IMG/VR virus record: IMGVR_UViG_3300005253_000361
Location: 32,001 to 96,000 of that record
Origin: a virus
DNA length: 64,000 nucleotides
Direction: 5' to 3' (one strand)
Shown: piece by piece, positions 4,113-22,867 of the stretch
How positions within the stretch are numbered: position 1 is the stretch's first letter
Layout of the letters: every line of letters starts with the position of its first letter
Notes under the pieces: model-generated
The model's input: the letters and a program-made list of their open reading frames with translations, nothing else
Databases searched by the model: none
What the model was told of the DNA's origin: nothing
Position numbers and translations under genes: made by a program

Positions 4113-4289
4113 TTACGCTTCCTGCTTTGCGTTCGCGGTGATGCGAGTCACCACGTCAGCGATCGCGATGATGTCGTTGACGTCACCGTCGTCGATCTTT
4201 CGCGACAGGTACTCGAAGATCTTCTCGAGCAATACCGGGATCAGGTCCTCCAGAACCTCTGCGAGGACCCGAGCGAGATACTTCTTCAC
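4113..4289 (-). CDS. small amphipathic protein in lysis cassette (58 aa, not in ORF track)
   Basis: AGGAGG RBS, GTG start overlapping the endolysin stop; VKKYLARVLAEVLEDLIPVLLEKIFEYL... Confidence 0.6.
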   Translation of the reverse strand: MKKYLARVLAEVLEDLIPVLLEKIFEYLSRKIDDGDVNDIIAIADVVTRITANAKQEA

Positions 4290-4831
4290 GGGGTACCACC
4301 TCCTTGAGACGGGCCCAGGCCCGCGGTACTGAACTGGATAGCCAGGTCTATCGAGACCTCGACCCAGTCAATGTAGAAAAGCTTCCTCGGGGGGCCTTCT
4401 TCCCAAGGGCAGGTGTCGACGTGGAGCCGGTTCTCCCGGCTGTAGAGGCAGAGGCGGTCCCACACGAGATCTTCCGGATTGCGGGCGATCGTGCGGAGCA
4501 TGATCTGAGCCGGGATGTCGTGCACGTAGAAGTCGGCCGCGAGTCCCAGTAGGTGGCGCCGCATCCGGGAGACCTTCCCGTCCGTCACCACCCGGTCCAG
4601 CGCCTCGGACCGGAGCCAACTGTTCATGATGAACCGATGGTCTAAGCGGTTTCGGGCCGGCTGTAGGAACTCATGCGTGAGCCGCATGAAGTTCACGGTC
4701 TGCTGCCCGGTCAGTTGGTCAGGGGTGGTCTGGAGCTCGGGATGCTCCCTCGATCGCAACACTTCCGCGAGCGTGAAGTCGCGCGCGATCCGGATCTGGG
4801 CCGGGTCAGGCGTCGGCACCGGCAGCCTCAT
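4286..4831 (-). CDS. peptidase M15A-family endolysin
   Basis: FTLAEV..S N-terminal motif, SWLR, RHLLGLAADF (H..D) and LHVD zinc ligands; start reassigned to ATG 4831. Confidence 0.8.
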   Translation of the reverse strand: MRLPVPTPDPAQIRIARDFTLAEVLRSREHPELQTTPDQLTGQQTVNFMRLTHEFLQPARNRLDHRFIMNSWLRSEALDRVVTDGKVSRMRRHLLGLAADFYVHDIPAQIMLRTIARNPEDLVWDRLCLYSRENRLHVDTCPWEEGPPRKLFYIDWVEVSIDLAIQFSTAGLGPSQGGGTP

Positions 4832-5099
4832 CCGGCTCGGGGGCGTCTCCCTCGGGGGCCTCCGGCACGACCTCGACCAACTTAGTGAGATCGAGTCCCT
4901 GCATCGTCTGGCGGAACTGAACCGGGGTGTCGGGGTTGATCCCGATGTCTTCCTTGATGTCCTCGATAATCTGCAGGTGGCGCGACTGGTTCTCGCGCAT
5001 GATGGCCGCCATCGCGGCCCGCTGGATCTTGCTGGTCTTCCAGCTCTGTGACTTCTTGGTGGTGGGCTTCTTCGCGGGCTTCTTCGGTGCGCGTGGCAT
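4806..5099 (-). CDS. hypothetical protein (basic N-terminus, acidic C-terminus)
   Basis: AGGAGGGGG RBS; lies between holin and endolysin. Confidence 0.65.
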   Translation of the reverse strand: MPRAPKKPAKKPTTKKSQSWKTSKIQRAAMAAIMRENQSRHLQIIEDIKEDIGINPDTPVQFRQTMQGLDLTKLVEVVPEAPEGDAPEPDEAAGADA

Positions 5100-5117
5100 T
5101 GCTCCCCCTCCTGTTGG

Positions 5118-5381
5118 TTACAGCCGGTCGAGTAGCCGTTCCAGCACTCGACGCGTGTCCTTCTGGACAAGACTGGATTCCTGAATCACTTCGGAGTTGC
5201 GGTGGACCGCAGACTCCAGATGTTGTATGTGGTTACCCATCAGGGTCGCCAACGTGACGTTCTGCTCCTTCTGGTCCACGCTGTGCCGGCTGGCCAACCT
5301 GTACATCAGGTACCCGAACCCAAGCGACACCGCCACAATCGGCGGTGCGTACTTGACAAGTTCGAGCAGGTAGGTTTCCAC
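5118..5381 (-). CDS. putative holin (single N-terminal TM plus coiled coil, BhlA-like architecture)
   Basis: one TM helix (PIVAVSLGFGYLMY) then a heptad-like tail; upstream of the endolysin. Confidence 0.6.
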   Translation of the reverse strand: METYLLELVKYAPPIVAVSLGFGYLMYRLASRHSVDQKEQNVTLATLMGNHIQHLESAVHRNSEVIQESSLVQKDTRRVLERLLDRL

Positions 5382-7854: not shown

Positions 7855-9009
7855 TTATGCTGTCGGTTGTTGGCGAATTGCGTCTTCTGGAGATTGAGCC
7901 CGAGCCAAGTGCTGCTGGATCGCCGCCATGGAGGTCCCGTTACCCTCAACTACACCGGCATACTCGTCAGCCTCACGCGCGGCCACAGGAAAGAACCGCA
8001 GAAACAGATCCCTCACCTGCTCGGGGCCCGGGCCTTCAATCTCCCAACGCTGATCTATGCGTCCGGCACGCACCAGCGGCGCCGGTAGAAGGTCTGCATC
8101 GTTGGCGGTGATAACCAGTAGCCGCCCCTCGGACGCGAGCGGCCCATCTATCGTGTTGAGCAGCCCTGCCAGCGTGACGCTCGTGTCGGTGCCGAAGTCG
8201 ATCTTCTCGATGTCCTCCAGCACCACCAGTGATCGCCCCGGCAACTGCGCCATGGCGCGAGCCAACGTGGCGTCATTGAAGTCATCCCCCTGCGACAGCG
8301 TGAGCACATACAGGGGCATTTGGTAGTGGCCGGCGATCGCCTGGACGAGCGAAGACTTGCCGTTTCCAGGGGGCCCCACGAGCAGGTATCCACGCCGATA
8401 CGGCAAACCCCGTTCCACGTGCCACGATCGAGCGTTCCGGAACCAATCAACATCATCGACGATCTCGTCCATCAGACCGGGGCGCAGCACTACCGATTCG
8501 AGTGGTCGCGGTTCGCCGACACGGATCTGTGACCATCCACCGTTCTGGTTATTGATGTACGCGACCTGCTTGCCGCGGCGGCGCAACATTGCCGCATCGA
8601 CCACGTCGTGCACGAGGGCTCGAATCGGGGACGGATCACGTCCCAGCGCTCGCAGGGTGATGGTCCGAGCCTTGGCGCCGGCATAGCCAACCTCTTCGAG
8701 AGTCTGGTGAAGAAGACACCAACGATTCTCGTAACGGAACACGTGCACGCCAAGGCCGGGCTCGAGCACCGCACGCGGCTCGTCTCGTTCGCCCTCGTAA
8801 GCCACGAACCCCGACAGCCTCCGGCAGCTACGGCCGTAGCTGGTCTCGGCGAGCCACTCGCCCATCCAACGCACGAACTCGGTGTCCATCGTGTAGAAGG
8901 ACGCGGTAAAGAATCTATCGAACACGTAGCGGGGCAGGTAGCGCACCGCAGCGGCTGCGGCACCGAGCGCCATGAGGTACAGACCGCCCTCGAAGAACTG
9001 GTTCTCCAT
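7855..9009 (-). CDS. Bcs1-like membrane-anchored AAA+ ATPase
   Basis: N-terminal TM NQFFEGGLYLMALG; PGLGVHVFRY; RPLESVVL; RGLPYRRGYLLVGPPGNGKSS (Walker A); LEDIE (Walker B); GLLNTIDG; RAGRID. Confidence 0.85.
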   Translation of the reverse strand: MENQFFEGGLYLMALGAAAAAVRYLPRYVFDRFFTASFYTMDTEFVRWMGEWLAETSYGRSCRRLSGFVAYEGERDEPRAVLEPGLGVHVFRYENRWCLLHQTLEEVGYAGAKARTITLRALGRDPSPIRALVHDVVDAAMLRRRGKQVAYINNQNGGWSQIRVGEPRPLESVVLRPGLMDEIVDDVDWFRNARSWHVERGLPYRRGYLLVGPPGNGKSSLVQAIAGHYQMPLYVLTLSQGDDFNDATLARAMAQLPGRSLVVLEDIEKIDFGTDTSVTLAGLLNTIDGPLASEGRLLVITANDADLLPAPLVRAGRIDQRWEIEGPGPEQVRDLFLRFFPVAAREADEYAGVVEGNGTSMAAIQQHLARAQSPEDAIRQQPTA

Positions 9010-9980
9010 TACGCCGTCTCTTTCTTCTTCTCGAACATCTTCGTGTAGTCCATCATGGGCCAGAACTGTCCCGCTACTCGGCCCGGGATCTTGTCGTAGG
9101 TGAATGGGAGCAGCCAGGGGTCCGGCTCGACGTGCACGATGTAACGGTGCTGGGTCTCGACGGAGCCGGCGTGCACGGTGAAGGCAGGCGTCACCACCTT
9201 GGCCCACCCGTGGCAGACATCCCACGCCATCGGGAGACTCAGCAGCTGGATCGTCGCCTTGCCGCCTCCGGGAGTGATCTCCTCCATGATCCGGATCCAT
9301 TCCTCGGCCCGGTTGATCGTGGCGCCACACTGGAGTTGACAGGTCAGGTGGAACATCACCCGGGCGCTCGCGTACCGGAGCATGTTGTTCGTGGCCGGAT
9401 GGGCCTTCACCTGCAGTACCTCTACAGGACGCTCCGGGGGATTCGCAATACTGTAGGGGCCGCCCACGTAGGGCAGCTCCAGCGCGCCAGGGGTGTTCTG
9501 GGCCGACTGCCAGATGGGGTCGCAGTACTCCGGCCAGTGCTGGTCAAAAAATCCGACACAACAAGGCGGGAAACCCAATAGATCTCCAATGGCGTTGTGG
9601 TTGGACTCCTCATGGGCTGCCTCGAAGGCATCGAGATTTGCATCATCGGGCGACACCACGGTGAACCAGGAGAAGTTCGGGTCACCCTCACGGAGCGGTG
9701 CGTGCCGGCGGTGGCTGAACCCATCGCTGGGGCCGACCGTAGTGAGCCGGCGCCACTTGAGTCCGTACCGCGCGAGTTTCTCGTACATCCTGTCACCGCC
9801 CACGTTCGGGATGTGGCAGGTACCGCAGGCACGAACACCATCGGCGGCCGTCTTGAGCTCCGCTTCCCAGCAGACACTGGAGGCCAGCTTGAAGGCCGGA
9901 CCCCAGTAGTCGCGCGCCTCGGAGGAGTGGTAGGTGATGCGGGTGAAGCTCGGGGCTTCGAAGTTCGGTAGGAGCTTCAT
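9009..9980 (-). CDS. Cys-rich protein with DUF483-like motif
   Basis: IGDLLGFPPCCVGFF and FHLTCQLQC; start reassigned to ATG 9980. Confidence 0.55.
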   Translation of the reverse strand: MKLLPNFEAPSFTRITYHSSEARDYWGPAFKLASSVCWEAELKTAADGVRACGTCHIPNVGGDRMYEKLARYGLKWRRLTTVGPSDGFSHRRHAPLREGDPNFSWFTVVSPDDANLDAFEAAHEESNHNAIGDLLGFPPCCVGFFDQHWPEYCDPIWQSAQNTPGALELPYVGGPYSIANPPERPVEVLQVKAHPATNNMLRYASARVMFHLTCQLQCGATINRAEEWIRIMEEITPGGGKATIQLLSLPMAWDVCHGWAKVVTPAFTVHAGSVETQHRYIVHVEPDPWLLPFTYDKIPGRVAGQFWPMMDYTKMFEKKKETA

Positions 9981-10312
9981 CGGAGCCTCGCCAACCACAC
10001 AACCTTGCACGCGATGTGTAGGAACTGGTCTTCGTGAACGTTGATCCGGTTCTCGCACTTGGCGAAGTCGATCAGCCAATGCACCACCGTCTCAGCCGCA
10101 CCGAGATAAACGTTGCTGGTGATCGCCCACACGACACCGCCGTGAATGAGAGCGTGAGAGGATAGCCAGTAGGGCCAGCAAAGCGTGCAGGTTGCCCCCG
10201 GCGGTGTCGTGGTTCTGTTGTGTCGGTTCTTGCCCTTCGCCATCGCGTCGGACTGTAGGACGAAGTCCGCCAGGGCGTGCCCGATCAGTAGCGCGAAGAA
10301 TGTCTCGATCAT
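9977..10312 (-). CDS. DUF3307-like membrane protein
   Basis: GHALADFVLQ, SHALIHG, HWLIDFAK, DQFLH motifs. Confidence 0.8.
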   Translation of the reverse strand: MIETFFALLIGHALADFVLQSDAMAKGKNRHNRTTTPPGATCTLCWPYWLSSHALIHGGVVWAITSNVYLGAAETVVHWLIDFAKCENRINVHEDQFLHIACKVVWLARLR

Positions 10313-10619: not shown

Positions 10620-10810
10620 TGCTTGCTCTCCGGGTGAGGTAGAACAACCACCTCTTTGTAGACGATGTACTCGGGTAAGCCGGTCCAGCCGCAGGGCCAA
10701 CAGATCACGTCACCGCTGAACTGGATGTCGCTGCTGTTCAGATGGTCGAAGGTCTCCTCGTACACCTCGGTGCTGTCGCACTCCGGACAGTGGTACTTGC
10801 CGTCAGCCAT
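10616..10810 (-). CDS. small zinc-ribbon protein
   Basis: MADGKYHCPEC...CWPCG; overlaps the radical SAM stop. Confidence 0.6.
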   Translation of the reverse strand: MADGKYHCPECDSTEVYEETFDHLNSSDIQFSGDVICWPCGWTGLPEYIVYKEVVVLPHPESKQ

Positions 10811-13319
10811 TTGAATCTCCGTGGTCGTCGTAGTTGCCGTGCGGGACGTTGGCGTGCTCCAGTGGGTTCTTCTGGTGAGCCGCGTCCGCGTGGTCGCCGT
10901 GGTCGTCGTAGTTGCCGTGGGCCACATTCGCGTGGGCGGGATCGTTGGGATCGACAAGCTTCAGTTGGCAAGGGTTGCCGACCGGCGCATCCTCAGTCCG
11001 GACGAACTCAGAGTTCTTCGCCTCGCCTCGCCAGGCCGAGGGACGATACGTGTTGGCTTTCCGCAGCCAGCGGAACGGATCCCAGGGCGGTTCGTTCTGT
11101 TGGATCGAGTGGTAGAGACCATTGGCGTCGAACCGGTGCGCCACCTGGTCAAGTGTCGTGAGATTCGGGATGGTCCGGTGGAGATGGTCCGCTACCGCCT
11201 GATAGAGGCCGGCCCAGCCACGACAGAAGCGGGTGCGGTTGCGCCAGTCACCATCGATCGCGTGACCGTTGCAGTGGCCCGTGCAGACTGCCCACCAGCG
11301 GCACACCTGATCGCCGTCACGTCCATCCACACCGCCGAGGCATCCACCGTGCTCATGCGAGACGCCCCGCAGTATCTCGTAGCGAGCCTCGGAGAACTTC
11401 TTGTCCTCGGCTACCTGGTACGGGATCCCCCCGGCCGCATACAAATGTTCGCAAACTCCGATTGCCGAGTCCTCCTGGATGGTCCGTTCGGCAGCCGTGT
11501 GGAGAGGATCGCATTGGGTCCGAACGCATGTAAATTGGCCGCACCCGAGCAACCCGTCCATCGTTTCCGCGATGGCGGGAAACTGGTAACCCCGACTCAG
11601 ACTCCACGGCACAAACTCTGCCCAGAAGGCTGCCATATCGGTTTCGGAAAGCTCCCAGTCAGAGCGCTCCGGCTCGGTATCGATATGGGCGGGGTTGAGA
11701 CGTGGATTGCGAATACCGTGGTCGGCGAGCCAGTCGATGAACCGCTTCAACTCATCGATCTTCCGACGGTTCTGCCCCGGCACCAGACCCGGGCCGGCGT
11801 TAGCCTTGGTCAGGCAGATGATCAGACCGGGGGGCCGGTGCTCCCTGCAGAGCCGCAGGAGTGTCCGGAGCGTGGCGGCTGTGCCCTCCAGGGTGGTGCG
11901 TAGGGTGTTGCCCATCTTACGAACATCGTTCAGGCGCCCCCAGCCGTCGATCGAGAGCCCCACGTTGACGTTGTACCGCTTGAACATGGCCATGTGGTCG
12001 TCGTCGACCAGCACGCCGTTCGTCTGGATCGCGGCCTTGCCGAACCGCTCGTGGTTGATCCGAAAGATCTCCTCGAGGTCGGCCTTCTTGATCAGAAGAG
12101 GTTCGCCGCCGTGCGCGGTAGCTACCGCGGCGCCGCCCCGATTCTCTTCCTCCCAATCCCACTGGGCATTGATTGCCCGAATGGCCGCGTGGATATCGTA
12201 GTCGTGGGCCTTCTTGACGTTGCCGAGATCCCTGGCGGTGTTCTGGTAACAGTCCACCGAAAGAAACCCTCCAGCCACAAAGGTCTTACTGGTCGTCTCG
12301 ACATCATAAACTTCAGGGTCTCGCTTGTGTCCCATAGGCTCGATGGCCGTAATCTGAGCCCGGGGCGTCTTCGAAACTGCACCCGTAATCGCCACTTTGC
12401 GTGTGAGCGCCGGCCGACAAAGAGAAGCGAACCGTGCAACCTCAGGTCGGCCGCCCCGCATATAGACCCACCATGAATCGTCCGCCTTCTGGGCGATCCG
12501 GACATCGAACCCTAACTTCTCCCAGCAGTACCGAACCTCGTCAATAGCCTCCTGCTCCTTTTGGCAGATGCCAAGACCATTTCGGGTGCCTTCAGCGTCA
12601 AACATGCCTGCGAGCCACCCCTTAATGAATGGAGTACTCCTACCCATCGGAGGGGTTTCGGCGAGATCCATTAACGCGGTCAGGTCATCATTCCGGTGCA
12701 CGCGAGTAAGGTGACTGTAGGAAAGTTCGGCCCCCGTATCCTTTCGCTTGTGGTGCACGCGAGAAAGTTCAACGCCGAAAAGAGATTTGGCGTACAACTC
12801 TACTCGGTCCAGGAGTTCTTGATCCTTCGAATAGACCTTGAAAGTGCTTACGGGACCGCGCTTGCATACGTAATCCCCCCAGCTGCCGTCCCCAAAACTG
12901 ACCCCAGATAGCCACCCAGCTCGATAGTCGCTGTCCTGAGTAATGTCCTCCTTAACGGGGTCACACAAATGCAGGAACGCATCGCCTACCCGTAGGTCCC
13001 TCGTCCGGACCACACAATGGCGGTCCTGCCGCTTAACGAGCCACTCATGATCCGGTGTCGACTTGACCTCCCCTGCAGTCGTGGTGATGCGAATCAACCG
13101 CTCACGCTTGCGGATGAGGCGAATAACTTCCGTATCAACGTACCGTCGATACTTCTTGCCCTCCACAGCATCGAGTTCCCAGGAAACCAGGCGGTCCCCA
13201 ACCTCGACAGACTCGATGGGTTTCCAACTACCGTCGGTCAACAGCATCAGTGTGCCCTTGGCCAGACAGTGGCTACACGACAGGTTGCAGGCGCGCGTCA
13301 ACTTGGTTGATTGCGGCAA
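10803..13319 (-). CDS. radical SAM/SPASM-domain enzyme (peptide-maturase type), intein-containing
   Basis: after splicing CNLSCSH/CYQ gives CxxxCxxC; HGGEPLL, IQTNG, GLSIDG; Cys-rich SPASM (C..C, GVCE, CRWWAVCTGHC, RFC); TTG start with AGGAGGGGG RBS. Confidence 0.9.
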   Translation of the reverse strand: MPQSTKLTRACNLSCSHCLAKGTLMLLTDGSWKPIESVEVGDRLVSWELDAVEGKKYRRYVDTEVIRLIRKRERLIRITTTAGEVKSTPDHEWLVKRQDRHCVVRTRDLRVGDAFLHLCDPVKEDITQDSDYRAGWLSGVSFGDGSWGDYVCKRGPVSTFKVYSKDQELLDRVELYAKSLFGVELSRVHHKRKDTGAELSYSHLTRVHRNDDLTALMDLAETPPMGRSTPFIKGWLAGMFDAEGTRNGLGICQKEQEAIDEVRYCWEKLGFDVRIAQKADDSWWVYMRGGRPEVARFASLCRPALTRKVAITGAVSKTPRAQITAIEPMGHKRDPEVYDVETTSKTFVAGGFLSVDCYQNTARDLGNVKKAHDYDIHAAIRAINAQWDWEEENRGGAAVATAHGGEPLLIKKADLEEIFRINHERFGKAAIQTNGVLVDDDHMAMFKRYNVNVGLSIDGWGRLNDVRKMGNTLRTTLEGTAATLRTLLRLCREHRPPGLIICLTKANAGPGLVPGQNRRKIDELKRFIDWLADHGIRNPRLNPAHIDTEPERSDWELSETDMAAFWAEFVPWSLSRGYQFPAIAETMDGLLGCGQFTCVRTQCDPLHTAAERTIQEDSAIGVCEHLYAAGGIPYQVAEDKKFSEARYEILRGVSHEHGGCLGGVDGRDGDQVCRWWAVCTGHCNGHAIDGDWRNRTRFCRGWAGLYQAVADHLHRTIPNLTTLDQVAHRFDANGLYHSIQQNEPPWDPFRWLRKANTYRPSAWRGEAKNSEFVRTEDAPVGNPCQLKLVDPNDPAHANVAHGNYDDHGDHADAAHQKNPLEHANVPHGNYDDHGDSNG
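12252..13268 (-). mobile_element. intein (339 aa) with LAGLIDADG homing endonuclease in radical SAM gene
   Basis: block A CLAKGT, block B STPDHEWL, WLSGVSFGDG and WLAGMFDAEG, block F VYDVET, ends GFLSVD before +1 Cys. Confidence 0.9.
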
Positions 13320-13344
13320 GGTTCCCCCTCCTTTGGCCGACTCC

Positions 13345-13716
13345 TCAGTCGGCGCGAACTCGAAATGGCGTCTGCTTCTCCAGATAGATAGTGTGCTGGT
13401 GGCCCGGAATACCGGGCTCGATAGTCGGGTAGAGCGCGAACGCCTGAAGGACCTCGCAGGTCATCCCGACCGGATAGCGCCGCAAGAACCACCTGGGGGC
13501 GAAGCGTTGCTTAACCGCCTGCCACCAATCAGTTGGCCACTCGCAGTGGACCTCCTCGACAGTCTTCCCCAGCACCCGCATCTCAACGTCAACAACGAGC
13601 TCCTCGAGCTGCAGGTCCCAGTGGGCAGTCGGCAGGTCAAAAAGACGCCCGTGCAGAATCTTCCGTTGGTGAAAGCGCAAGACGTCGAGGACGACCTTTT
13701 CGGTCTCGATGTTCAT
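13345..13716 (-). CDS. hypothetical protein
   Basis: AGGAGGGGG RBS; directly upstream of the radical SAM gene. Confidence 0.7.
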   Translation of the reverse strand: MNIETEKVVLDVLRFHQRKILHGRLFDLPTAHWDLQLEELVVDVEMRVLGKTVEEVHCEWPTDWWQAVKQRFAPRWFLRRYPVGMTCEVLQAFALYPTIEPGIPGHQHTIYLEKQTPFRVRAD

Positions 13717-13738
13717 AGGTAGGTTCCCCCTCCTTTGA

Positions 13739-14005
13739 TCAGCCCCTCAGCCGACCTCGAGTAGCCCTCGCTCGCTCCAGCTGAGCGGACAAGATGTCGA
13801 GCCACTCCTGGGCCCGCTCAAGAGTCATACGGCGAGTGGCCATCACCTCGCCATTGACGATGTACTTGTCAAAGCCCCCCTCGGGGACCGGCACGTTCCA
13901 CTCGAGGTCGACCTTGACCGCCGAGCCGGTCTCACCCCAGGCCTCGATCGGGACGAGATTCGGGCCGTGAATATCGTCGAGTTCTACGAGATGTGCAGAT
14001 GCCAT
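13739..14005 (-). CDS. hypothetical protein
   Basis: AGGAGGGGG RBS; first gene after the promoter copy at 14060-14100. Confidence 0.7.
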   Translation of the reverse strand: MASAHLVELDDIHGPNLVPIEAWGETGSAVKVDLEWNVPVPEGGFDKYIVNGEVMATRRMTLERAQEWLDILSAQLERARATRGRLRG

Positions 14006-14059
14006 ATAGGTTCCCCCTCCTTTTTCCCTCGGTCGGCCGGTCCCTCAACCGACGCAGCT

Positions 14060-14100
14060 ACTCTGCTAAATCACCGCGCCACTGTCCAGTGAACTCTCAC
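14060..14100 (-). promoter_or_regulatory. putative late promoter (copy before radical SAM operon)
   Basis: GTGAGAGTT-cac-TGGACA-N17-CAGAGT in an intergenic gap. Confidence 0.6.
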
Positions 14101-14102
14101 CG

Positions 14103-14336
14103 TCAGGAAGTTTTTATTTCCTCGCCCGTACGCTCGTTCAGCATCACGGTATTGCCGCAGACCGGGCAGCTGAACCGATCGCTCGTCTGGGGATCCCGAT
14201 GGGGTGGTACCCCGGTGAACATGTGGGCATAGGCGAGCCCGCCCCGGATGCCCTCGCAAGCAGCCCGCCAGACGGTTTCGCCGCAAGCCGCGCAGTCGAT
14301 GAAATCCTCCTTACGGAACAGCACTTCTGTCTCCAT
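14103..14336 (-). CDS. small zinc-finger protein
   Basis: CAAC...CPVC; AGGAGGGGG RBS. Confidence 0.65.
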   Translation of the reverse strand: METEVLFRKEDFIDCAACGETVWRAACEGIRGGLAYAHMFTGVPPHRDPQTSDRFSCPVCGNTVMLNERTGEEIKTS

Positions 14337-14346
14337 CTTCCCCCTC

Positions 14347-15747
14347 CTAGACCCCGATCTCGGTCGGGTCGTCCACGTAGGCCACTGACAGATTGTCGTC
14401 GTGGTTGTCGTGGGCGGTGTCGGTGTGTGGTGTCGCGTCCTGGTGCGTTACATCGTCGTGGTCGGTGTAATTTGAGTGGGCGGTGTCGTCGTGGTCCGCG
14501 TGGTTCGTATGGGCGGTGTCGTTGTGATCGTCGTGGTTGATGTGGGCTACATCCGCGTGATCCTGGTGGTTGTCGTGGGCGACATCCGTATGGTCGTCAT
14601 GGTTGGTGTGCGCGGTGTCGGTGTGGTCGGTGTGGTTCACGTGCGCGACGTCGTCGTGATCGCTGTAGTTGATGTGGGCGACGTCAGAGTGGTCCGTATA
14701 GTCCGCGTGGGCCGTGTTGTTGTGGGATGAGGTGTCGGTATGGGCCACATCGGTGTGGTCGGTGTAGTTGGCGTGTGAAGCATTAGTGAAGTCGTCGTAG
14801 TCGGAGTGCGCGACATCGCTGTGGTCGGAGTGGTCCGAGTGGGCTAGGTCCCCGTGATCGGTGTAATCGTCATAATCGGTATAATCCTCGTGGAATGGAA
14901 CATCGTCCCAATCATCGTGGTACGTCTGGTCGTGGCTATTGTCCAGATTGTCGTGCGCTACGTCGCTATGATCGTTCCAGTCGTCATGAACGACATCAAC
15001 ATGATCGTCCCAGTCGTCATAAGCGGTGTCGGTGTGGTTATTGATGTTGCTGTGCGCGACGTTGTTGTGATCGGACCAGTTGATGTGAGTGACGTCGCTG
15101 TGGTCCGAATGGTTCGTGTGGGCGGTGTCGGAGTGATCGGTGTGGTTGTCGTGCACCGTATCGGTGTGCTGGGTCGAGGTGTTGTCCACGTAGGCTGTAT
15201 CATCGTGATCCGAGATATCAGTATGGGAGACGTCATCGTGATCGGTGTAGTTGCTGTGGGCCGTGTCGGAATGGTCGCTGTAATTTATGTGAGCGACATC
15301 GGAGTGGTCTGAACCGGTGTTGTCGTCATGCGCGACATCGGCGTGGTCACTGTGGTTGTCGTGGGCCACGTCAGAATGATCTGAATGATTGTCGTGGGCC
15401 GCGTCGCCATGGTCGCTGTAGTTGGTGTGCGCGACGTCAGCGTGCCCAATTACCTCCCGGCCCGACTCGCCAATCCAACGCCAGCGACCGTTGCCGGTGT
15501 CGTCCTCGACCCAATAACTACCTTGTACCCCGTCGCTGTGCGACTGGATATCGATCGGGAGACGGCGCTCATCCCCAGTGGCGCTAACGTAGTGCCAGTA
15601 ATCCCCTTCTACCCAGTAGCTGCCCACGACTGCCGGACTCGGAGTCGAGACGTACTCGGCCGTCTGGTATTGCCACTCCGAGGCAACCTCGTCGATGAAG
15701 CACCAGTAGTCCCCCTCGACCCAGAACGATCCAGCAGTCTTAGCCAT
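14347..15747 (-). CDS. His/Asp-rich tandem-repeat protein (tail module; candidate radical SAM substrate)
   Basis: N-terminal ~100 aa with 3x GS[FY]WVE[GD]D, then 31 units of consensus HxD[VT]AHx[ND][HYW]xD. Confidence 0.85.
   Translation of the reverse strand: MAKTAGSFWVEGDYWCFIDEVASEWQYQTAEYVSTPSPAVVGSYWVEGDYWHYVSATGDERRLPIDIQSHSDGVQGSYWVEDDTGNGRWRWIGESGREVIGHADVAHTNYSDHGDAAHDNHSDHSDVAHDNHSDHADVAHDDNTGSDHSDVAHINYSDHSDTAHSNYTDHDDVSHTDISDHDDTAYVDNTSTQHTDTVHDNHTDHSDTAHTNHSDHSDVTHINWSDHNNVAHSNINNHTDTAYDDWDDHVDVVHDDWNDHSDVAHDNLDNSHDQTYHDDWDDVPFHEDYTDYDDYTDHGDLAHSDHSDHSDVAHSDYDDFTNASHANYTDHTDVAHTDTSSHNNTAHADYTDHSDVAHINYSDHDDVAHVNHTDHTDTAHTNHDDHTDVAHDNHQDHADVAHINHDDHNDTAHTNHADHDDTAHSNYTDHDDVTHQDATPHTDTAHDNHDDNLSVAYVDDPTEIGV
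14395..15444 (-). repeat. 31 degenerate ~33-nt coding tandem repeats
   Basis: 11-aa periodicity over residues 102-451; codons diverged between units. Confidence 0.9.
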
Positions 15748-16923: not shown

Positions 16924-17000
16924 TCGTCTCCTCCTCTTTCAGCAGGTTGCCAACTCGGGTAGTTGGTACCACTCCGGTGGGGCCGCTTGATAGCAAACGC

Positions 17001-18860
17001 TCACCGGGACCGGAACCACCTTCGCAGGAGTGCCTCCAGCAAGATCTCCCACCACTTCTTCTTGCGCGGCGGGGGCAGGATAGGGGGCTCGGGAGGGCCT
17101 GGCGGGAGATCTGGCGGAGGCGGTTCCACGGGTGGTGCCGGTGACAGCAGCTCCCGTATCTGAGCCTTCAGCAGGTACGGGAGCGATCCAAGATCCTGGT
17201 CGCGGTCACCGATGTTGCCCCAAATGGCGGCGTAGCCCTCCTCGAGACAAATCCTCATCCCCTCGAGCGACTCGGCTTCCGTCCAGTCCTTGCGGCCTCC
17301 CCGGATACGGAACCGGTCCTCCGTCATGCAGGGACGATCGACCCGCGCGACCTGGAGCATCTGACGCAACTGGGACTTGTCCGGAACCTGGTGCCCCCAC
17401 CCGACGTAGTGGCCCGGGTAGGGGCGGCCGCCGGGACGCTGCCGACCACCATACTGATGGAACCGAAGCTCCTCGGTGTGCATGAAGTGGACCCAGCCGC
17501 CGACCTGATCCCACGTGACCCACTCGGGTAGGTCGTACCCGAGCCCCATCGACCAATTAGCGTAGCCTCCGATCCGAGCCAGGACCTGCCGCTGAAAGTC
17601 CCGCTCGTCCGACACGTTGGGATCCTGCGGGGCGCGGTCGTCCCACTCACGGTCCCCATAGAGCCACAAGTGGACCCAGAACTCGTGTAGGGCCGCCAGC
17701 GAGAGCAGCCGGATCAGCCCTTCGCTCGGGAGGCGCCGGAACAGGCCGACGTGGAAGCCGTGGAAGCCGTGCCCCACGATGAACTCCCGGTAGAACTCCT
17801 CAGCCTGCTCAACCGTCAGGTTCTCGCTCGAGGGCGCCATGACGAGCTGGAGCGCCGGATTGTCGCCAGGCCACGGCACGATCTCGGCCGGCTCCTCGGC
17901 TTCCGCAAACGGTTCCCCGAACCACGTGATGGGGGTGCGTTGTGGATTTGGATTCTGGTCATGCGTCACGACGAAGCAGCCGAGCCGGCGCGCCTCCGCG
18001 GGCTCGAACCCAGACTCCTGGATCTTGTCGTCCTTCGCCTTGGCCCGCATGGTCTGGCCGAGGGTCGTGTGGTTGTCGGGCGGATCGGCCCACATTTCAA
18101 TTGAGGCTCCCTTCTCCTCACCGTCCCGGAGGTGCTCACCGGGGGCGCCAGCGTACTCATCCTGGACCCACGAGACCCAGCAGAGGCGGCCGAACCGATC
18201 GCCAGATTCATACCGCGGCAGGGAGCCGAGGTCGCGCTCCCAGGTCGCCCTGAGATGATCGCGCCGAATCTCGATCTCCATCTGGCCGACCTCCAGCGTC
18301 GGAGGGTAGTCCATGAGGCGTTCGAACGCATCCGGGATCCGAATCTCGAACGGCTCGGGCCGGACATCAGGCTCCGACTGCCATTCGGGGCGATCAGGTT
18401 CCTCCGGGCGCTCGAGCGCGCTGAACCGGAGCGGCGCCAGGTCGGTACGACGGGCAATCTCGACGCCTCCGACCCAGACCCCACAGAGAGCGTCGGGCTC
18501 GAGGTCATCCAGCTGGGCCTCATGCCAGAAGTTCGGGATCGAGATACCGGTATCGTGGATGCCGCGGTGTAGGTCGGCGATCGGCCGAGACGCCGTCCCG
18601 CCATCAAACGGCGCCACCACGTGGACTCGGCCGAATAACCCCGGGGCCTCCTTGGGTTCCCAGCCCTCGACCTTGTGCCAGGTCAGGTGGAGTGTGCCGG
18701 CCTCGTCGATGCTCCAGGTACCGGGCGTAATTCCGGGATGCCAAGGACGGAACCGGAGCTTGACCTTCGTCCTGGGTAGCCGGAGGTGGTCACTGTTGGG
18801 ACCGCCGGTCTCGACGGTCTCGATAAACTCAGGGCTGTTGAGCAGTTCGTAATCGGTCAC
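17001..18860 (-). CDS. 619-aa hypothetical protein; C-terminal half possibly glycoside-hydrolase-like, Pro-rich linker and basic amphipathic tail
   Basis: WVHLWLYGD...QVLARIGGYANWSMGLGYD...PCMTED pattern; poly-Pro run; RKKKWWEILLEALLRRWFRSR. Confidence 0.5.
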   Translation of the reverse strand: MTDYELLNSPEFIETVETGGPNSDHLRLPRTKVKLRFRPWHPGITPGTWSIDEAGTLHLTWHKVEGWEPKEAPGLFGRVHVVAPFDGGTASRPIADLHRGIHDTGISIPNFWHEAQLDDLEPDALCGVWVGGVEIARRTDLAPLRFSALERPEEPDRPEWQSEPDVRPEPFEIRIPDAFERLMDYPPTLEVGQMEIEIRRDHLRATWERDLGSLPRYESGDRFGRLCWVSWVQDEYAGAPGEHLRDGEEKGASIEMWADPPDNHTTLGQTMRAKAKDDKIQESGFEPAEARRLGCFVVTHDQNPNPQRTPITWFGEPFAEAEEPAEIVPWPGDNPALQLVMAPSSENLTVEQAEEFYREFIVGHGFHGFHVGLFRRLPSEGLIRLLSLAALHEFWVHLWLYGDREWDDRAPQDPNVSDERDFQRQVLARIGGYANWSMGLGYDLPEWVTWDQVGGWVHFMHTEELRFHQYGGRQRPGGRPYPGHYVGWGHQVPDKSQLRQMLQVARVDRPCMTEDRFRIRGGRKDWTEAESLEGMRICLEEGYAAIWGNIGDRDQDLGSLPYLLKAQIRELLSPAPPVEPPPPDLPPGPPEPPILPPPRKKKWWEILLEALLRRWFRSR

Positions 18861-18875
18861 ACATCATCAGAGCTC

Positions 18876-19193
18876 CTACGCTGGGTTAAGGTCGGTTTCG
18901 TCTTCGGAGGTAGTGCCGGCGCCGAGCTTCCCGTCAGCCACCAGCTGGTCCAGCACGACCTGGCGCAGTCTTGGCTTGGCCCCAGAGAAGTCCTTTCGAT
19001 TTATGGCCCGGATCAACACCTTGGCCTCCGCACCATGGTAGGTATGCTGGGTCGGACGCTCCAGGGCGTCGTGGGTCTCGATCGACACCAGGTACTGATC
19101 CTCCGCGGGGGCGAAACGGAGACGGAAATCCACCACCTCTACGGTCGAGAGATCCACCATCAGAGGGGTGTCGAGTACTAGGGTTGCGCTCAT
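18876..19193 (-). CDS. small tail-module protein
   Basis: ATGA-coupled to the long fibre gene. Confidence 0.65.
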   Translation of the reverse strand: MSATLVLDTPLMVDLSTVEVVDFRLRFAPAEDQYLVSIETHDALERPTQHTYHGAEAKVLIRAINRKDFSGAKPRLRQVVLDQLVADGKLGAGTTSEDETDLNPA

Positions 19194-20926
19194 GCAGCCA
19201 ACTTCCTTTCGAGTTCGGCCACCTTGGCCTTGAGACGTCGGACCTCGGGTTCGAGCTTGTCGACACGAGGCATTAGTCGTTCAATGTCTGCTGTGTGCTC
19301 GTTGAATCCGGCCACCACCAGCGGTAGCACCTTGCTGTACTTCAGACCGAGGAACCCATCGGGGTCGGTATAGACCGCCTCAGGCAGAACCTTCTGAACG
19401 TCCTGCGCGATGAGGAACGCACGCCGTTGCCCTGCCGCCTTCGCGTCGAAGCGTTCCGATTCGATGAAGTACCCTGTCTCGGTGCGCAGCGTGCCGAGCT
19501 TACGGGTGGCGTCCACGATAGGCTCCAGGCCGGTCTTGAGACGCTCGTCCGAAACGGCCACCCACGCGGTCGCACCTAAGGTCAGGTCGACGCCACCCGA
19601 GCCTCCCGCGACGCAGCGAATCACATCGGCGGACACCTCGGTGAGATACGTGTTGCTGCCACCGTCGAGGTAGAGCTTCTTGGTGGACCCTAGCGACCAG
19701 TTCCCCATGACGCCACTGGTCTGTGCAGCCACGCGGAAGTACGCGGCCAAACCGCCACCGGTATAGATGTCGATGCGGTTGGCGCTGGACTCGGTGATGT
19801 ACGTGTCGCTGCCGCCGTCGAGGAAGAGCTTCTTCAACGGGTCTACTGACGCTGATTGGCGGAACTTCCAAATACCCGAAGTCGAGCTCACCATTACCGT
19901 TCCGCCGACTACAACTTGGTAGTTGTCTACGCTGGACTCGGTGATGTACGTGTCACCGCCGCCATCCAAGTAGAGCTTCTTGAGGGCCGACAGGTAGATG
20001 TCGTCGGTAAAGCTCCACTGGCCCGTGATGACCTCGGCAACCCCGACCTGCGGGACCCCAACAGCCGTGAGGTTGCCCGTGTGGACCAGAGTCCGGGTCG
20101 CGTCAGGCGTGATGGTCTCGTCGGCCGACAGGATGCCACTGAACTCGAGAAGCTGCGGATCACTACCGCCGGAGAACTTGAGCGCTCGCGCGTTGCCTGA
20201 CCAGCTGGTCGAGATCGATTTGTAATTCCCGGCCCCGTCCTCGTACACGTTGACCCCGATCAACCCGTACCCAGCCGTGAACTCCTGGATGCAGAAGTAG
20301 CTGCCGACCAGGATCCGGTCGTCCCGCAGGAGCGTGATGTCGGCCCCCGACATCTGAAGATCGCCCGTCATGATGCCGCCAGCCAGCGCGACAGCACCCG
20401 TCTGACCTGCCGACACCCCGTGCGGATTCGCGCCCGAGCTCGCATGGGTGTCATGGTGGCTCTTCGTCACGTAATCGTTGTCGCCGACCGGGGCGAGGCC
20501 GCGCATGATCCCGTAGGCACTGTTGGCGGCGTTACGGATCGCCACAACCTCGGTGGCCTCACGCTGGACGAAGGTGTCGTGCGCGTTCGAACCCCCTTGG
20601 CCGAACCCGACGGCTGTCCGGCTCGCGCTCAACTGGACCTTGGAATAGGTATCCGAGACGGCCCCGTAGAGATCCAGATCATCGCCCATCTGGACCTTGG
20701 TGCTCGCGATCGGCGTCAGGGTGCCGGCCTCGAGCGCCATGTAGAAGACCCCGCTGTCCGTGGCGAGATACTGCTGACTCACGGCGGGCGAACCCGGCCG
20801 GCTACCGTAGAGGCCGTAGTCGGTCTCGGTCAGGCTGAGGTAGAGAGCGTTGTTCTGATGGGATGCTCGGGTAGTGTTGCCCGGGCTAACTGTATAGAGC
20901 GATACGTCGCGAACCGGCGTGGCCAC
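19190..20926 (-). CDS. tail fibre with C-terminal intramolecular chaperone (peptidase S74)
   Basis: SDERLK autocleavage motif, LIAQDVQKVLPEAV, terminal coiled coil; 3x KKL[YF]LDGGx[DN]TYxTE internal repeat. Confidence 0.85.
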   Translation of the reverse strand: MATPVRDVSLYTVSPGNTTRASHQNNALYLSLTETDYGLYGSRPGSPAVSQQYLATDSGVFYMALEAGTLTPIASTKVQMGDDLDLYGAVSDTYSKVQLSASRTAVGFGQGGSNAHDTFVQREATEVVAIRNAANSAYGIMRGLAPVGDNDYVTKSHHDTHASSGANPHGVSAGQTGAVALAGGIMTGDLQMSGADITLLRDDRILVGSYFCIQEFTAGYGLIGVNVYEDGAGNYKSISTSWSGNARALKFSGGSDPQLLEFSGILSADETITPDATRTLVHTGNLTAVGVPQVGVAEVITGQWSFTDDIYLSALKKLYLDGGGDTYITESSVDNYQVVVGGTVMVSSTSGIWKFRQSASVDPLKKLFLDGGSDTYITESSANRIDIYTGGGLAAYFRVAAQTSGVMGNWSLGSTKKLYLDGGSNTYLTEVSADVIRCVAGGSGGVDLTLGATAWVAVSDERLKTGLEPIVDATRKLGTLRTETGYFIESERFDAKAAGQRRAFLIAQDVQKVLPEAVYTDPDGFLGLKYSKVLPLVVAGFNEHTADIERLMPRVDKLEPEVRRLKAKVAELERKLAA

Positions 20927-20929
20927 TCA

Positions 20930-22867
20930 TTACCACCACCTTGATGCGTCTGCGGAGGACTCGTCAGCCGGGTCAATGTACCCGTTGTCGTCCGTCCAGA
21001 ACCCCTGAACCTGCTTCTGTTCTTCTGTTGCGTCGGCCCAATCGGCGGCAGTAGGGGTGGTCCAGTTCCCGATCCCGGTCACGCCCTTCTGGTTGTTCAG
21101 CAGGAGCTCGATCCGGGGGATCGGGCTGAAGGAGCGGATGATCTGGATGACCTCCATGACCCGGTTGGTCCAGGAGCCGTCAGCCGAGGGAGCGCGGGCG
21201 GTCGTCAGGAGGATGCGGTCGCCGATCTTCACCTCAGACATGCCGAGTCCGGTCTCGATCACCCGCACCTCAGTGTCGGGATTGGCCGACACGAACCGGA
21301 CCCGTTCAGCGAGCTCCACTGCTTGCGCGGCCGTGGTGAGGTAGGTCGTGATGACTCGGTCCTCGGTGCGGCCGTCCAGCTGGACATACCGCGCCTCGTT
21401 GTCAGTCCGCTCCCGCGTGAGGAACCTACGTGACGTCGGGTTCTCCGCGTACCGGACCAGCACCCTAGAGAAGATCGTCTCGATCTTGGTCTCTGGGGCA
21501 AATTCCATGATGATGGGGTCGTCCAGCACCGGAGCCCCCACGGGGTAGTAGGGGTACCAGATGGTCGGCTGGATCAGACCCGTGAGACCACGGATCGTCC
21601 GCCCCATCACACCCCGCTCGAAGTTGCGGATGTAGGTGCGGGCCGACTGCTCATCCTGGATGTAAGCCGCCTGGGCCCACGGCTGGAACGCGTCCGAGTC
21701 GGTCGCGCCAGTCGAGTCGATCTCGGCGTCCAGCAACCCGAGGTAGTTCGTGTAGATCTCGCAGACAATCTCGCCGTAGTACTTCAGGTAGTCAGTCGAG
21801 GTCTCCCAGGCCTTACCGCGCGCGGGCTGCCCGGTGGCATCGCACGTAACCACCCCGGGCGTACCACTGTACTGACCCAGGATGGTGAGGCTGCAGCCCG
21901 TGAGATCGAGCGTCATGTCGCCGGCGTCGATCTCGACCCCGTCGTCGTAGACCGCGTCAATGGAGTAGAGAGTCTGGTAGGCCGGGTCCGCCACGAGGTA
22001 CTTACCCTTGTTGTCGGTGGTGTCGACCAGCTTGGGCGTGATGCCGGTCTTGACGCCAAAGAGCAACGGGATCCTGGTCCCCCGGACCTCCTCATCCGTG
22101 TTGGGGTAGTTGTCCTCGAAGATAGGCGTGACCGGCAGGTTGCGGTACGCCACCTTCTGCTTGTCCCGGACCATCAGCGTCATGGTCTTCATACCGGGCG
22201 CGATCGATTCAACGTACAGTTCGGCAATCTCGGCGTAGTCGCCCCCGCCGCCCGGCGTGTGGGCAAGTGAGTCGCCGCCGAAGTACACCCGGACCTTGGC
22301 GTTCTTCCAGGCCCAGGTCGCGGAGAGCCGGTCGAACATCCCGTCCGCGTTGCTGATCGAGAGCTCGCCCGACGCGACACGCTTGACCGGGCCCCAGAAC
22401 AGGTCCTCGGTCGACTCGGTTACGGACGGCAGCGCCTCAGCGGTCAACCGGGGGTCGTAGATGATGCGGCCGAAGATCCTGGGGTGGGACGCCAGATGGA
22501 TACGGAAGAAGCTCACCATAGCGGTATAGAGGTCCGGGTCGACCGAGCCAGTAGTGCTGCAGTAGAGAGTGGAGGTTGAGCCGAGGGACTGCTCGTCGTA
22601 GTACCAGGAGCCCGCCGCAGCATCGCAGGCCGCGATCGACGCCACCTCGGTCAGATCTACATCGTTCTGCCGGAGCCCAGTCAGCTTCCGGTAGAGGCCG
22701 CCCTTCTGGATGTCGGTGCCGACGAAGTTCTCGAACGTGATCTCCCACACATTCGTCCGGCCGGCCGTCTTGCTCCAGCCGGCGAGCTTCTGCTTCGGCG
22801 TGATCTCGACCAGCACGATCGCCTCCCGGACCGTCTGGTCGATGAAGTTCTCAAAGGCCTGCGACAA
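20930..22867 (-). CDS. tail tip/baseplate hub-like protein
   Basis: second gene after the tape measure; GELSISNADG.FD and IPLLFG patterns. Confidence 0.65.
   Translation of the reverse strand: MSQAFENFIDQTVREAIVLVEITPKQKLAGWSKTAGRTNVWEITFENFVGTDIQKGGLYRKLTGLRQNDVDLTEVASIAACDAAAGSWYYDEQSLGSTSTLYCSTTGSVDPDLYTAMVSFFRIHLASHPRIFGRIIYDPRLTAEALPSVTESTEDLFWGPVKRVASGELSISNADGMFDRLSATWAWKNAKVRVYFGGDSLAHTPGGGGDYAEIAELYVESIAPGMKTMTLMVRDKQKVAYRNLPVTPIFEDNYPNTDEEVRGTRIPLLFGVKTGITPKLVDTTDNKGKYLVADPAYQTLYSIDAVYDDGVEIDAGDMTLDLTGCSLTILGQYSGTPGVVTCDATGQPARGKAWETSTDYLKYYGEIVCEIYTNYLGLLDAEIDSTGATDSDAFQPWAQAAYIQDEQSARTYIRNFERGVMGRTIRGLTGLIQPTIWYPYYPVGAPVLDDPIIMEFAPETKIETIFSRVLVRYAENPTSRRFLTRERTDNEARYVQLDGRTEDRVITTYLTTAAQAVELAERVRFVSANPDTEVRVIETGLGMSEVKIGDRILLTTARAPSADGSWTNRVMEVIQIIRSFSPIPRIELLLNNQKGVTGIGNWTTPTAADWADATEEQKQVQGFWTDDNGYIDPADESSADASRWW

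Follow-up and report, generated by a model that had tools for sequence, protein, structure and literature searches.

The DNA analysed here, referred to as the window, comprises 64,000 nucleotides (nt), bases 32001-96000 of the 117-kb IMG/VR virus record IMGVR_UViG_3300005253_000361, whose completeness is estimated at 67%. Its minus strand carries genes for a 466-amino-acid (aa) protein built largely of His-x-Asp motifs, for a radical SAM/SPASM enzyme interrupted by an intein, and for a DUF483-like partner. We describe these three genes as a candidate protein-maturation cassette in which the enzyme, together with its partner, is likely to act on the repeat protein. The cassette has the following features.

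14347-15747, minus strand: candidate substrate, 466 aa, hairpin-like repeats followed by an array, C-terminal end ...DDPTEIGV
About 15448-15747, minus strand: three GS[FY]WVE[GD]D hairpin-like repeats of the candidate substrate, at residues 6, 42 and 76 (within residues 1-100)
14395-15444, minus strand: the array at residues 102-451, about 31 units of eleven residues each, consensus H-x-D-[VT]-A-H-x-[ND]-[HYW]-x-D
10803-13319, minus strand: radical SAM/SPASM enzyme precursor, 838 aa, of the 'DGDWRNR' family of anSME-like enzymes
12252-13268, minus strand: intein with LAGLIDADG endonuclease in the enzyme, 339 residues (18-356), matching Pfam LAGLIDADG_3 and Intein_splicing
11223-11528, minus strand: SPASM region of the enzyme with eight conserved Cys, C-extein residues 255, 260, 280, 317, 330, 336, 340 and 356
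10806-10952, minus strand: C-terminal tail of the enzyme, HANVAHGNYDD and HANVPHGNYDD plus HGD/HAD triplets
9009-10079, minus strand: DUF483-like partner, an open reading frame (ORF) of 356 aa with a BLASTP match to a bacterial partner at 3e-27

The candidate substrate contains 100 Asp, 71 His and 33 Asn residues. Its N-terminal part has the appearance of a folded region, and residues 102-451 comprise 27 canonical 11-mers and three double or irregular segments, which together make about 31 units, the number that an earlier note on this DNA had counted. Among the 27 canonical units, position 1 is His and position 3 is Asp or Asn in all 27, position 4 is Val or Thr in 26, position 5 is Ala in 22 and position 6 is His in 25; position 8 is Asn or Asp in all 27, position 9 is His, Tyr or Trp in 20 and position 11 is Asp in 21. 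Within the 350-aa array, 87 of the 89 His, Tyr, Trp and Phe residues are followed by Asp or Asn at +2, including all 14 Tyr and all 4 Trp, compared with a mean of 30.6 such triplets (standard deviation 3.9, maximum 43) in 2000 shuffles. At the DNA level, Tandem Repeats Finder recovers only a 33-nt period with 66-77% matches (14443-14725), and the array units are therefore old and diverged; as read from this comparison, the protein pattern is kept by selection while the DNA units have drifted apart. The repeat protein has 124 database relatives, mostly of about 300 aa, with the same layout of hairpin repeats followed by an array.

On the same strand, the start of the enzyme ORF lies 1,028 nt downstream of the repeat gene, at the distance of about 1 kb given in the earlier note. 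With 37.7 bits the enzyme passes the cut-off of the Pfam Radical_SAM model (PF04055; 29.5 bits), all members of the enzyme family keep the GGEPLL SAM motif, and removal of the intein from CNLSCSH-intein-CYQ yields the CxxxCxxC motif that places the protein in the radical SAM superfamily. The Pfam SPASM model is absent from the enzyme's Pfam matches; the eight auxiliary cysteines are invariant in 90 aligned sequences, in keeping with the anSME-like SPASM subgroup, whose C-terminal domain has seven or eight Cys and uses CxxCx5Cx3C for two auxiliary clusters. The family motif CxxCx5Cx3C becomes C-x12-C-x5-C-x3-C in the window clade through a 10-residue insert, the SPASM cysteines are followed by an invariant DGDWRNR signature, and the family, with 348 homologues of the window enzyme, has a C-terminal extension of roughly 100 aa. 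The best NCBIfam matches are XyeB, YhhB, DynA, anSME (47.3 bits, cut-off 349), FxsB and AmcB, each falling far short of its cut-off and covering the core region only. An AlphaFold2 (AF2) model of the C-extein has a predicted local distance difference test (pLDDT) score of 80.0, and its top Foldseek matches, ChlB (9gm3, 1.4e-7) and anSME (4k39, 1.8e-7), are about equal. Among solved structures, the family profile matches anSME at 7e-22 over the full length (positions 3-354 of 397) and ChlB at 1.2e-17 over the N-terminal half. By sequence and predicted fold, the enzyme is an anSME-like SPASM enzyme in a family of its own. The description of it in the earlier note as a triceptide-type maturase holds in so far as it resembles anSME and the triceptide synthases in both respects, and is not supported in so far as the window enzyme scores far under the cut-off of every curated triceptide family.

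The last 49 residues of the enzyme contain 9 aromatic-x-Asp/Asn triplets arranged as two copies of the 11-mer of the repeat protein, a feature already recognized in the earlier note, compared with 9 such triplets among the 93 aromatic residues of the other 789 positions. The tail is predicted to be disordered (pLDDT below 50 for C-extein residues 454-495 in the AF2 model) and does not dock anywhere in that model. HGD-type tails occur in 24 of 89 stand-alone forms against 1 of 31 long (fused) forms, among the 120 homologues listed. A complex prediction for the C-extein with array residues 375-466 scored 0.00 without controls and is evidence neither way.

The intein is inserted directly before the third Cys of CxxxCxxC (CNLSCSH, intein, CYQNT), and the enzyme would be unable to bind its cluster before splicing because the insertion lies inside this motif. 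The best NCBIfam match of the intein is rSAM_Rv_intein, from the intein-containing Rv2578c radical SAM family (5e-21). It begins with Cys, ends with Val-Asp and is followed by Cys at +1, so that, of the canonical class-1 features (N-terminal Cys or Ser, C-terminal His-Asn, and Cys, Ser or Thr at +1), the first and the last are present, along with Hint and LAGLIDADG domains, and Val-Asp stands in place of His-Asn. Inteins ending in Asp are known. Three intein-free homologues (P0002-P0004) read CN[LI]xCxYCYQ uninterrupted across the site. A metagenome scan aimed at the closest relatives of the enzyme confirmed nothing; P0003 alone gave 6 distant loci (29-41% identity), without the P0002-P0004 contigs. 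A 339-aa homologue of the repeat protein (P0128) carries a Hint-type intein inside its His/Asp array, matched by Pfam and NCBIfam intein models; with the intein in the window enzyme, this indicates that substrate and enzyme genes of the cassette can both host inteins.

The partner probably starts at the ATG at 9980, giving a protein of 323 aa whose gene overlaps the stop of an upstream DUF3307 gene. It has no Pfam or PHROG match at 0.01, and its identity rests on intermediates: a bacterial 520-aa protein encoded next to the enzyme matches the window partner (3e-27) and also the C-terminal half of 640-680-aa enzyme forms (4e-30; fusions of the P0009 type). Against Pfam DUF483 the relatives are borderline, at 25.7 and 26.5 bits for a cut-off of 25, and the window copy scores 11.8; it is linked to the DUF483 relatives by jackhmmer. 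Residues C173, C174 and C251 are invariant, with C247 and H290 nearly so, which suggests a metal site. The AF2 model of the partner has a pLDDT of 84.5 (below 50 for residues 1-29) and a predicted template modelling score of 0.81; comparison of this fold with the PDB by Foldseek gave no match at E <= 0.001 (best 0.038), and the best scores from a wide VIA-align search, Z 5.3 (2guk, of unknown function) and 4.1 (NleE), are within noise. Most partners contain a class-I methyltransferase domain; among solved structures, its nearest relatives (3e-9) are the N-methyltransferases BamL and BpumL of RiPPs, peptides made on the ribosome and modified after translation. This domain is absent from the window partner and from the partners of the nearest enzymes (290-330 aa), and it is the only half matched when the partner profile is searched against PDB sequences. 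With the methyltransferase half included, the profile retrieves 1,209 of 1.84 billion cluster representatives at E <= 1e-30. A Bcs1-like AAA+ ATPase gene (7855-9012, minus strand; phrog_7485, 1.1e-61) begins at the stop codon of the partner gene, an arrangement that suggests translational coupling.

A scan of viral contigs with the enzyme profile gave 60 loci, of which 51 remained after removal of 5 without a family-level enzyme (below 200 bits) and 4 duplicates; a single enzyme sequence retrieved no viral loci, and it was the alignment-based scan that found them. An array was scored where an ORF with a run of at least eight H-x-[DN] motifs lay on the same strand within 4 kb. By this definition 49 of the 51 distinct loci pair the enzyme with an array ORF, which mostly ends where the enzyme ORF begins, and the two misses are contigs that start with the enzyme gene and have no upstream DNA. 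In the converse scan, an alignment of the repeat protein found 27 viral loci, 25 of them with arrays, and the enzyme lies directly downstream in 24 of these 25; the single miss is a locus that ends 30 nt after the array gene. The adjacency of SPASM enzymes and repeat ORFs that the earlier note had anticipated therefore holds in viral sequences in both directions, and repeat-protein homologues commonly have a SPASM neighbour. The two-gene system of that note was incomplete in overlooking the partner. By jackhmmer, this protein neighbours the enzyme in 49 of 51 viral loci and, among loci retrieved with the repeat protein, in 16 of 18, all misses being at contig ends.

The same association extends to cellular genomes. 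Relatives of the enzyme are present in at least 437 stretches of one-per-species genomes from many phyla (tblastn, E <= 1e-3); of 69 distinct cellular family loci, 67 have the partner, adjacent in 48 and fused to the enzyme in 19, and 45 have an array. Arrays of two bacterial loci (L094:7355-7936 and L098:10670-11242) are proteins of 190-250 aa with a twin-arginine signal and a lipobox, and other bacterial arrays form the C-terminal domains of proteins of 1000-2600 aa. The twin-arginine (Tat) signal suggests that these arrays would mature in the cytoplasm before export. Taken together, these scans make it very likely that enzyme, array and partner form one functional unit, and the link between enzyme and substrate is strongly supported by the sequence comparisons.

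Several loci depart from the simple arrangement. Two enzyme paralogues lie in tandem in phage loci L071, L072 and L081, and two to five array genes stand in a row ahead of one enzyme in L073-L075, L077, L082-L084 and L087. An array protein at L110:10700-11434 is similar in size to the two signal-bearing bacterial arrays. In Pseudoalteromonas rubra (L124:6903-7187), a 94-aa peptide with three H-x-D motifs (HTD/HSD) and long (V/I)D runs is encoded beside a 2-oxoglutarate-oxygenase-like gene.

Among 50,697 records of a cultured-phage collection, only three match the enzyme at E <= 1e-10, those of the Thermus phages Cumys, phiMa and phiLo. In Cumys the same trio is found in the same order (Cumys_13/12/11) and, as in the window, in the tail/baseplate region, after the baseplate and 'tail collar fiber' genes. 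Cumys_13 combines three hairpin repeats with a His-x-Asp array ending QPVRG, the same layout as the 466-aa protein; Cumys_12 ('rSAM protein') is 34% identical to the window enzyme over 72% of the query (8e-35); and Cumys_11, annotated as a 'DUF483-domain protein', is the counterpart of the partner. The window differs from Cumys in the enzyme intein, in the 11-mer super-repeat with Tyr or Trp at position 9, in the unrelated ORFs between the genes and in the array-copying enzyme tail; a partner lacking the methyltransferase domain is a further feature of the window. The trio was described in a 2024 preprint (bioRxiv 10.1101/2024.08.14.607894, PMC11437467) as the 'rSAM module' of Cumys and phiMa, where fusions are noted, DNA modification is guessed and, in the account given of the module, no function is assigned to the third gene. 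The earlier note knew of no description of the system; the trio itself is thus already in print, with another functional guess. For the reading in which a protein is the substrate, the literature searched contained no paper that connects radical SAM enzymes with His-x-Asp arrays or with the modification of phage fibres.

Three characterized systems bear comparison. The triceptide synthases (XncB/XyeB, OscB/GrrM, MscB/FxsB, YxdB, HaaB, YhhB, HtkB and ChlB) are likewise anSME-like radical SAM/SPASM enzymes without an N-terminal RiPP recognition element, and their substrates, like the window array, carry repeated aromatic-x-X motifs. The window cassette differs from these systems in having a substrate of 466 aa with about 87 motifs rather than a short leader-core peptide, an obligatory DUF483-like partner, and an enzyme family with the DGDWRNR signature and the C-terminal extension. 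In the His-Xaa-Ser (HXS) antiphage system, as described in PMC13128918, a whole His-x-X-repeat protein (HxsA) is matured by radical SAM enzymes with a small partner and then acts outside the cytoplasm; it differs in its two radical SAM enzymes (HxsB and HxsC, alongside HxsD), five repeats, Ser in place of Asp, a +8 Da change at one site and a role in bacterial defence instead of phage structure. With its single enzyme and H-x-D/N repeats, the window system does not belong to the HXS class. The HxsB model matches two enzyme homologues (P0005 and P0017, 4.5e-10 and 5.1e-10) and is outside the best 25 families listed for the window enzyme, and the HxsA and HxsD models had no match in the NCBIfam searches. 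The third, anSME, is the best full-length match among solved structures and ties for the best fold, and, as proposed for the window enzyme, acts on a protein, folded or unfolded, at a C-beta hydrogen; it differs in converting Cys or Ser of C/S-x-P-x-R to formylglycine, and no such motif is found here.

The motif statistics bear on the chemistry. Across 146 distinct arrays, the share of residues with Asp or Asn at +2 is 97% for His, 54% for Phe, 41% for Tyr and 35% for Trp, compared with 2-14% for other residues; the His value follows in part from the use of H-x-[DN] runs to define an array. Phe and Trp cannot ligate metal yet obey the +2 rule, which points to an aromatic(1)-x-Asp/Asn(3) unit and thus to triceptide logic; the window array, with nearly all of its aromatic residues in such triplets, provides the aromatic(1)-x-x(3) substrate that neighbours triceptide synthases. 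We consider a three-gene maturation cassette at the end of the tail-fibre block, making a cyclophane product, to be the best explanation of the locus, and somewhat probable as a whole. Its parts differ in strength: that the enzyme acts on the array is likely, given the conserved gene association, whereas a ring-to-C-beta cross-link, proposed by analogy with the triceptide synthases, is put forward tentatively.

Links to the C-beta of Asp are also known from QhpD-type enzymes, where they are made from Cys. In the mechanism that we propose, all steps of which beyond the gene association we infer, the intein would first splice out and restore CxxxCxxC, as the sequence of the junction suggests, and the enzyme would form a complex with the DUF483-like partner. 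This complex may then move along the array and modify every triplet. At each, a 5'-deoxyadenosyl radical would take the C-beta hydrogen of the Asp or Asn at position 3, and the resulting C-beta radical would join the ring at position 1, at His C2, Tyr C3 or a Trp ring carbon, giving a three-residue cyclophane with a change of -2 Da per triplet. Precedents exist for each of these bonds: His C2 to C-beta links are among the products described for HaaB, YhhB and HtkB (PMC11499958), and YxdB is reported to join Tyr C3 to the C-beta of Asp, and OscB to join Trp C7 to that of Asn or Asp (PMC11002830). Maturation of an HxS-repeat protein by radical SAM enzymes is likewise on record (PMC13128918). The matured array would form a rigid rod on the tail fibre, densely stapled and resistant to proteases. 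In a broader form, which we hold to be somewhat less likely than not, whole structural proteins of phages and of many bacteria would be stapled with tens of cyclophanes (up to 87 here) by one enzyme-partner pair, and the enzyme tail would serve as a pseudo-substrate or docking handle co-evolving with the fibre repeat.

Several observations weigh against a cyclophane-forming cassette. The scores of the window enzyme against triceptide-synthase models are low (XyeB 57.9 against a cut-off of 450 bits, YhhB 56.6 against 445, FxsB 42.8 against 370 and GrrM 34.1 against 310), and its sequence is no nearer to these synthases than to anSME, which is an oxidase and not a cross-linker. His and Asp are classic metal ligands, and conservation alone is no proof of cross-linking. 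The class-I methyltransferase domain of most partners, absent here, hints at further or other chemistry. The 466-aa protein has no obvious leader peptide and no Pfam or PHROG match that would place it in a tail family, and its ESM Atlas model is poor (pLDDT 0.38), with meaningless structural neighbours. The trio is not contiguous in the window, where unrelated ORFs fill two gaps between the genes, one of about 1 kb and one of about 0.7 kb, and 24 of the 69 cellular loci lack an array by the definition used above.

Some of these points are consistent with the enzyme and partner modifying the array by another reaction, such as anSME-type two-electron oxidation or dehydrogenation at the Asp/Asn C-beta, epimerization, hydroxylation, or methylation where the partner has a methyltransferase domain, with the His/Asp ladder mainly binding metal. 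Metal binding by His-rich fibre proteins has precedent, in that His-x-His motifs at the tip of the T4 long tail fibre (gp37) bind iron. Such chemistry would suit the full-length match to anSME, which is also among the top NCBIfam matches, the relationship of the methyltransferase domain to BamL and BpumL, and the liganding character of His and Asp; in the HXS system, moreover, the change reported for the effector is +8 Da and not a simple cross-link (PMC13128918). We nevertheless regard it as unlikely. Phe and Trp follow the +2 rule well above background though they bind no metal, every Tyr and Trp of the window array does so, and a cross-link between positions 1 and 3 predicts that the two are conserved together, as they are. 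Methylation cannot be the core reaction, because neither the window nor the loci with the nearest enzymes have the methyltransferase domain.

A different substrate altogether, DNA or another non-protein molecule, with the His-x-Asp protein as an accessory or an unrelated fibre protein, follows from the proposal made for the 'rSAM module', and homologues of the radical SAM and DUF483 proteins do occur near deazapurine DNA-modification genes in some cyanobacteria (bioRxiv 10.1101/2024.08.14.607894). The word 'histidine' occurs 0 times in the main text of that preprint, so the array was not considered there. The array gene is a constant neighbour in both viral scans, sits in tail modules and encodes an exported Tat lipoprotein in some bacteria; the nearest characterized relatives of the enzyme all act on peptides or proteins, and the enzyme tail mimics the array. 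Modification of DNA is, on these grounds, highly improbable. It could also be supposed that the adjacency has no meaning and that an ordinary low-complexity fibre protein lies beside a mobile enzyme gene that arrived with its intein, as the unrelated small ORFs between the genes and the homing-endonuclease intein, a mark of mobile sequence, might suggest. Given that searches from either end find the trio again, across very different phages and many bacterial phyla, that 19 of 69 cellular loci have the enzyme fused to the partner and that the other window neighbours recur in 0 other loci, this supposition is close to refuted.

The position of the cassette within the viral gene order is defined by the following neighbours and sequence motifs.

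23668-28827, minus strand: tape-measure gene, PHROG tape-measure families (best 3.6e-40), before the cassette genes
20930-22867, minus strand: ORF of the phrog_8917 family, after the tape measure and a 257-aa ORF
19190-20926: tail-fibre ORF, PHROG tail-fibre families (best 9.4e-19), before the repeat gene
13345-14336, minus strand: three small ORFs between the repeat gene and the enzyme gene, of 77 aa (zinc-ribbon-like), 88 aa and 123 aa (phrog_26218)
4286-5170: endolysin-like ORF, after the cassette genes
16996-17006, minus strand: 11-mer CGGTGAGAGTT with one mismatch, upstream of the fibre and repeat genes
14092-14102, minus strand: 11-mer CGGTGAGAGTT, upstream of the small ORFs and the enzyme gene

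The repeat gene follows the tape-measure gene and the fibre ORF, which bears out its placement in the tail-fibre block by the earlier note, and from this gene position the 466-aa protein is fairly probably present in the virion. In one other locus (L009:7333-9948), the array is the C-terminal part of an 872-aa protein whose N-terminal part matches phrog_8917 (3.8e-40), the family of window ORF 20930-22867; this fusion supports the attachment of arrays to tail-tip proteins. A PHROG search of large array-bearing proteins left 8 of 9 without a match. The small ORFs, the Bcs1-like AAA+ ATPase and the DUF3307 gene were considered as cassette members and rejected, with 0 phmmer matches in other loci, and the ORFs of 77, 88, 123, 127, 90, 296 and 619 aa likewise recur in 0 other cassette loci (phmmer). 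No near-identical DNA was found in the phage collection.

The earlier note had also claimed a promoter motif shared by the enzyme operon and the structural genes, which it did not spell out. An 11-mer is indeed present upstream of both gene groups, and a sigma-70 promoter scan gave 0 sites. With one mismatch allowed, CGGTGAGAGTT has 7 sites, all on the minus (coding) strand (5458, 14092, 16996, 29486, 30777, 38488 and 41553), against a shuffle expectation of 1.46 and with 0 of 100 shuffles reaching 7; its three exact copies have little flanking sequence in common. The 11-mer may be a phage promoter or regulatory element. In addition, an identical 16-nt element containing a Shine-Dalgarno sequence, AAAGGAGGGGGAACCT, occurs on the minus strand at 13319-13334, 13721-13736 and 14008-14023, one copy ahead of each of three genes in a row (those of the 88-aa ORF, the 123-aa ORF and the radical SAM enzyme), with shorter versions at 14348 and five other gene starts.

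If a cyclophane-forming cassette is the correct reading, radical SAM peptide-maturase chemistry would not be confined to small secreted peptides and would also build structural components of virus particles and exported bacterial proteins, yielding a covalently stapled rod without known parallel among virion proteins. For enzymology, the pair would represent a highly iterative cyclophane synthase, or a new reaction on His-x-Asp, with a very large readout of up to about 87 modifications per protein, and the DUF483-like partner presents a new fold. The cassette is widespread, as the cellular stretches with an enzyme relative indicate, and its activity may explain the rigidity or protease resistance of some receptor-binding fibres.

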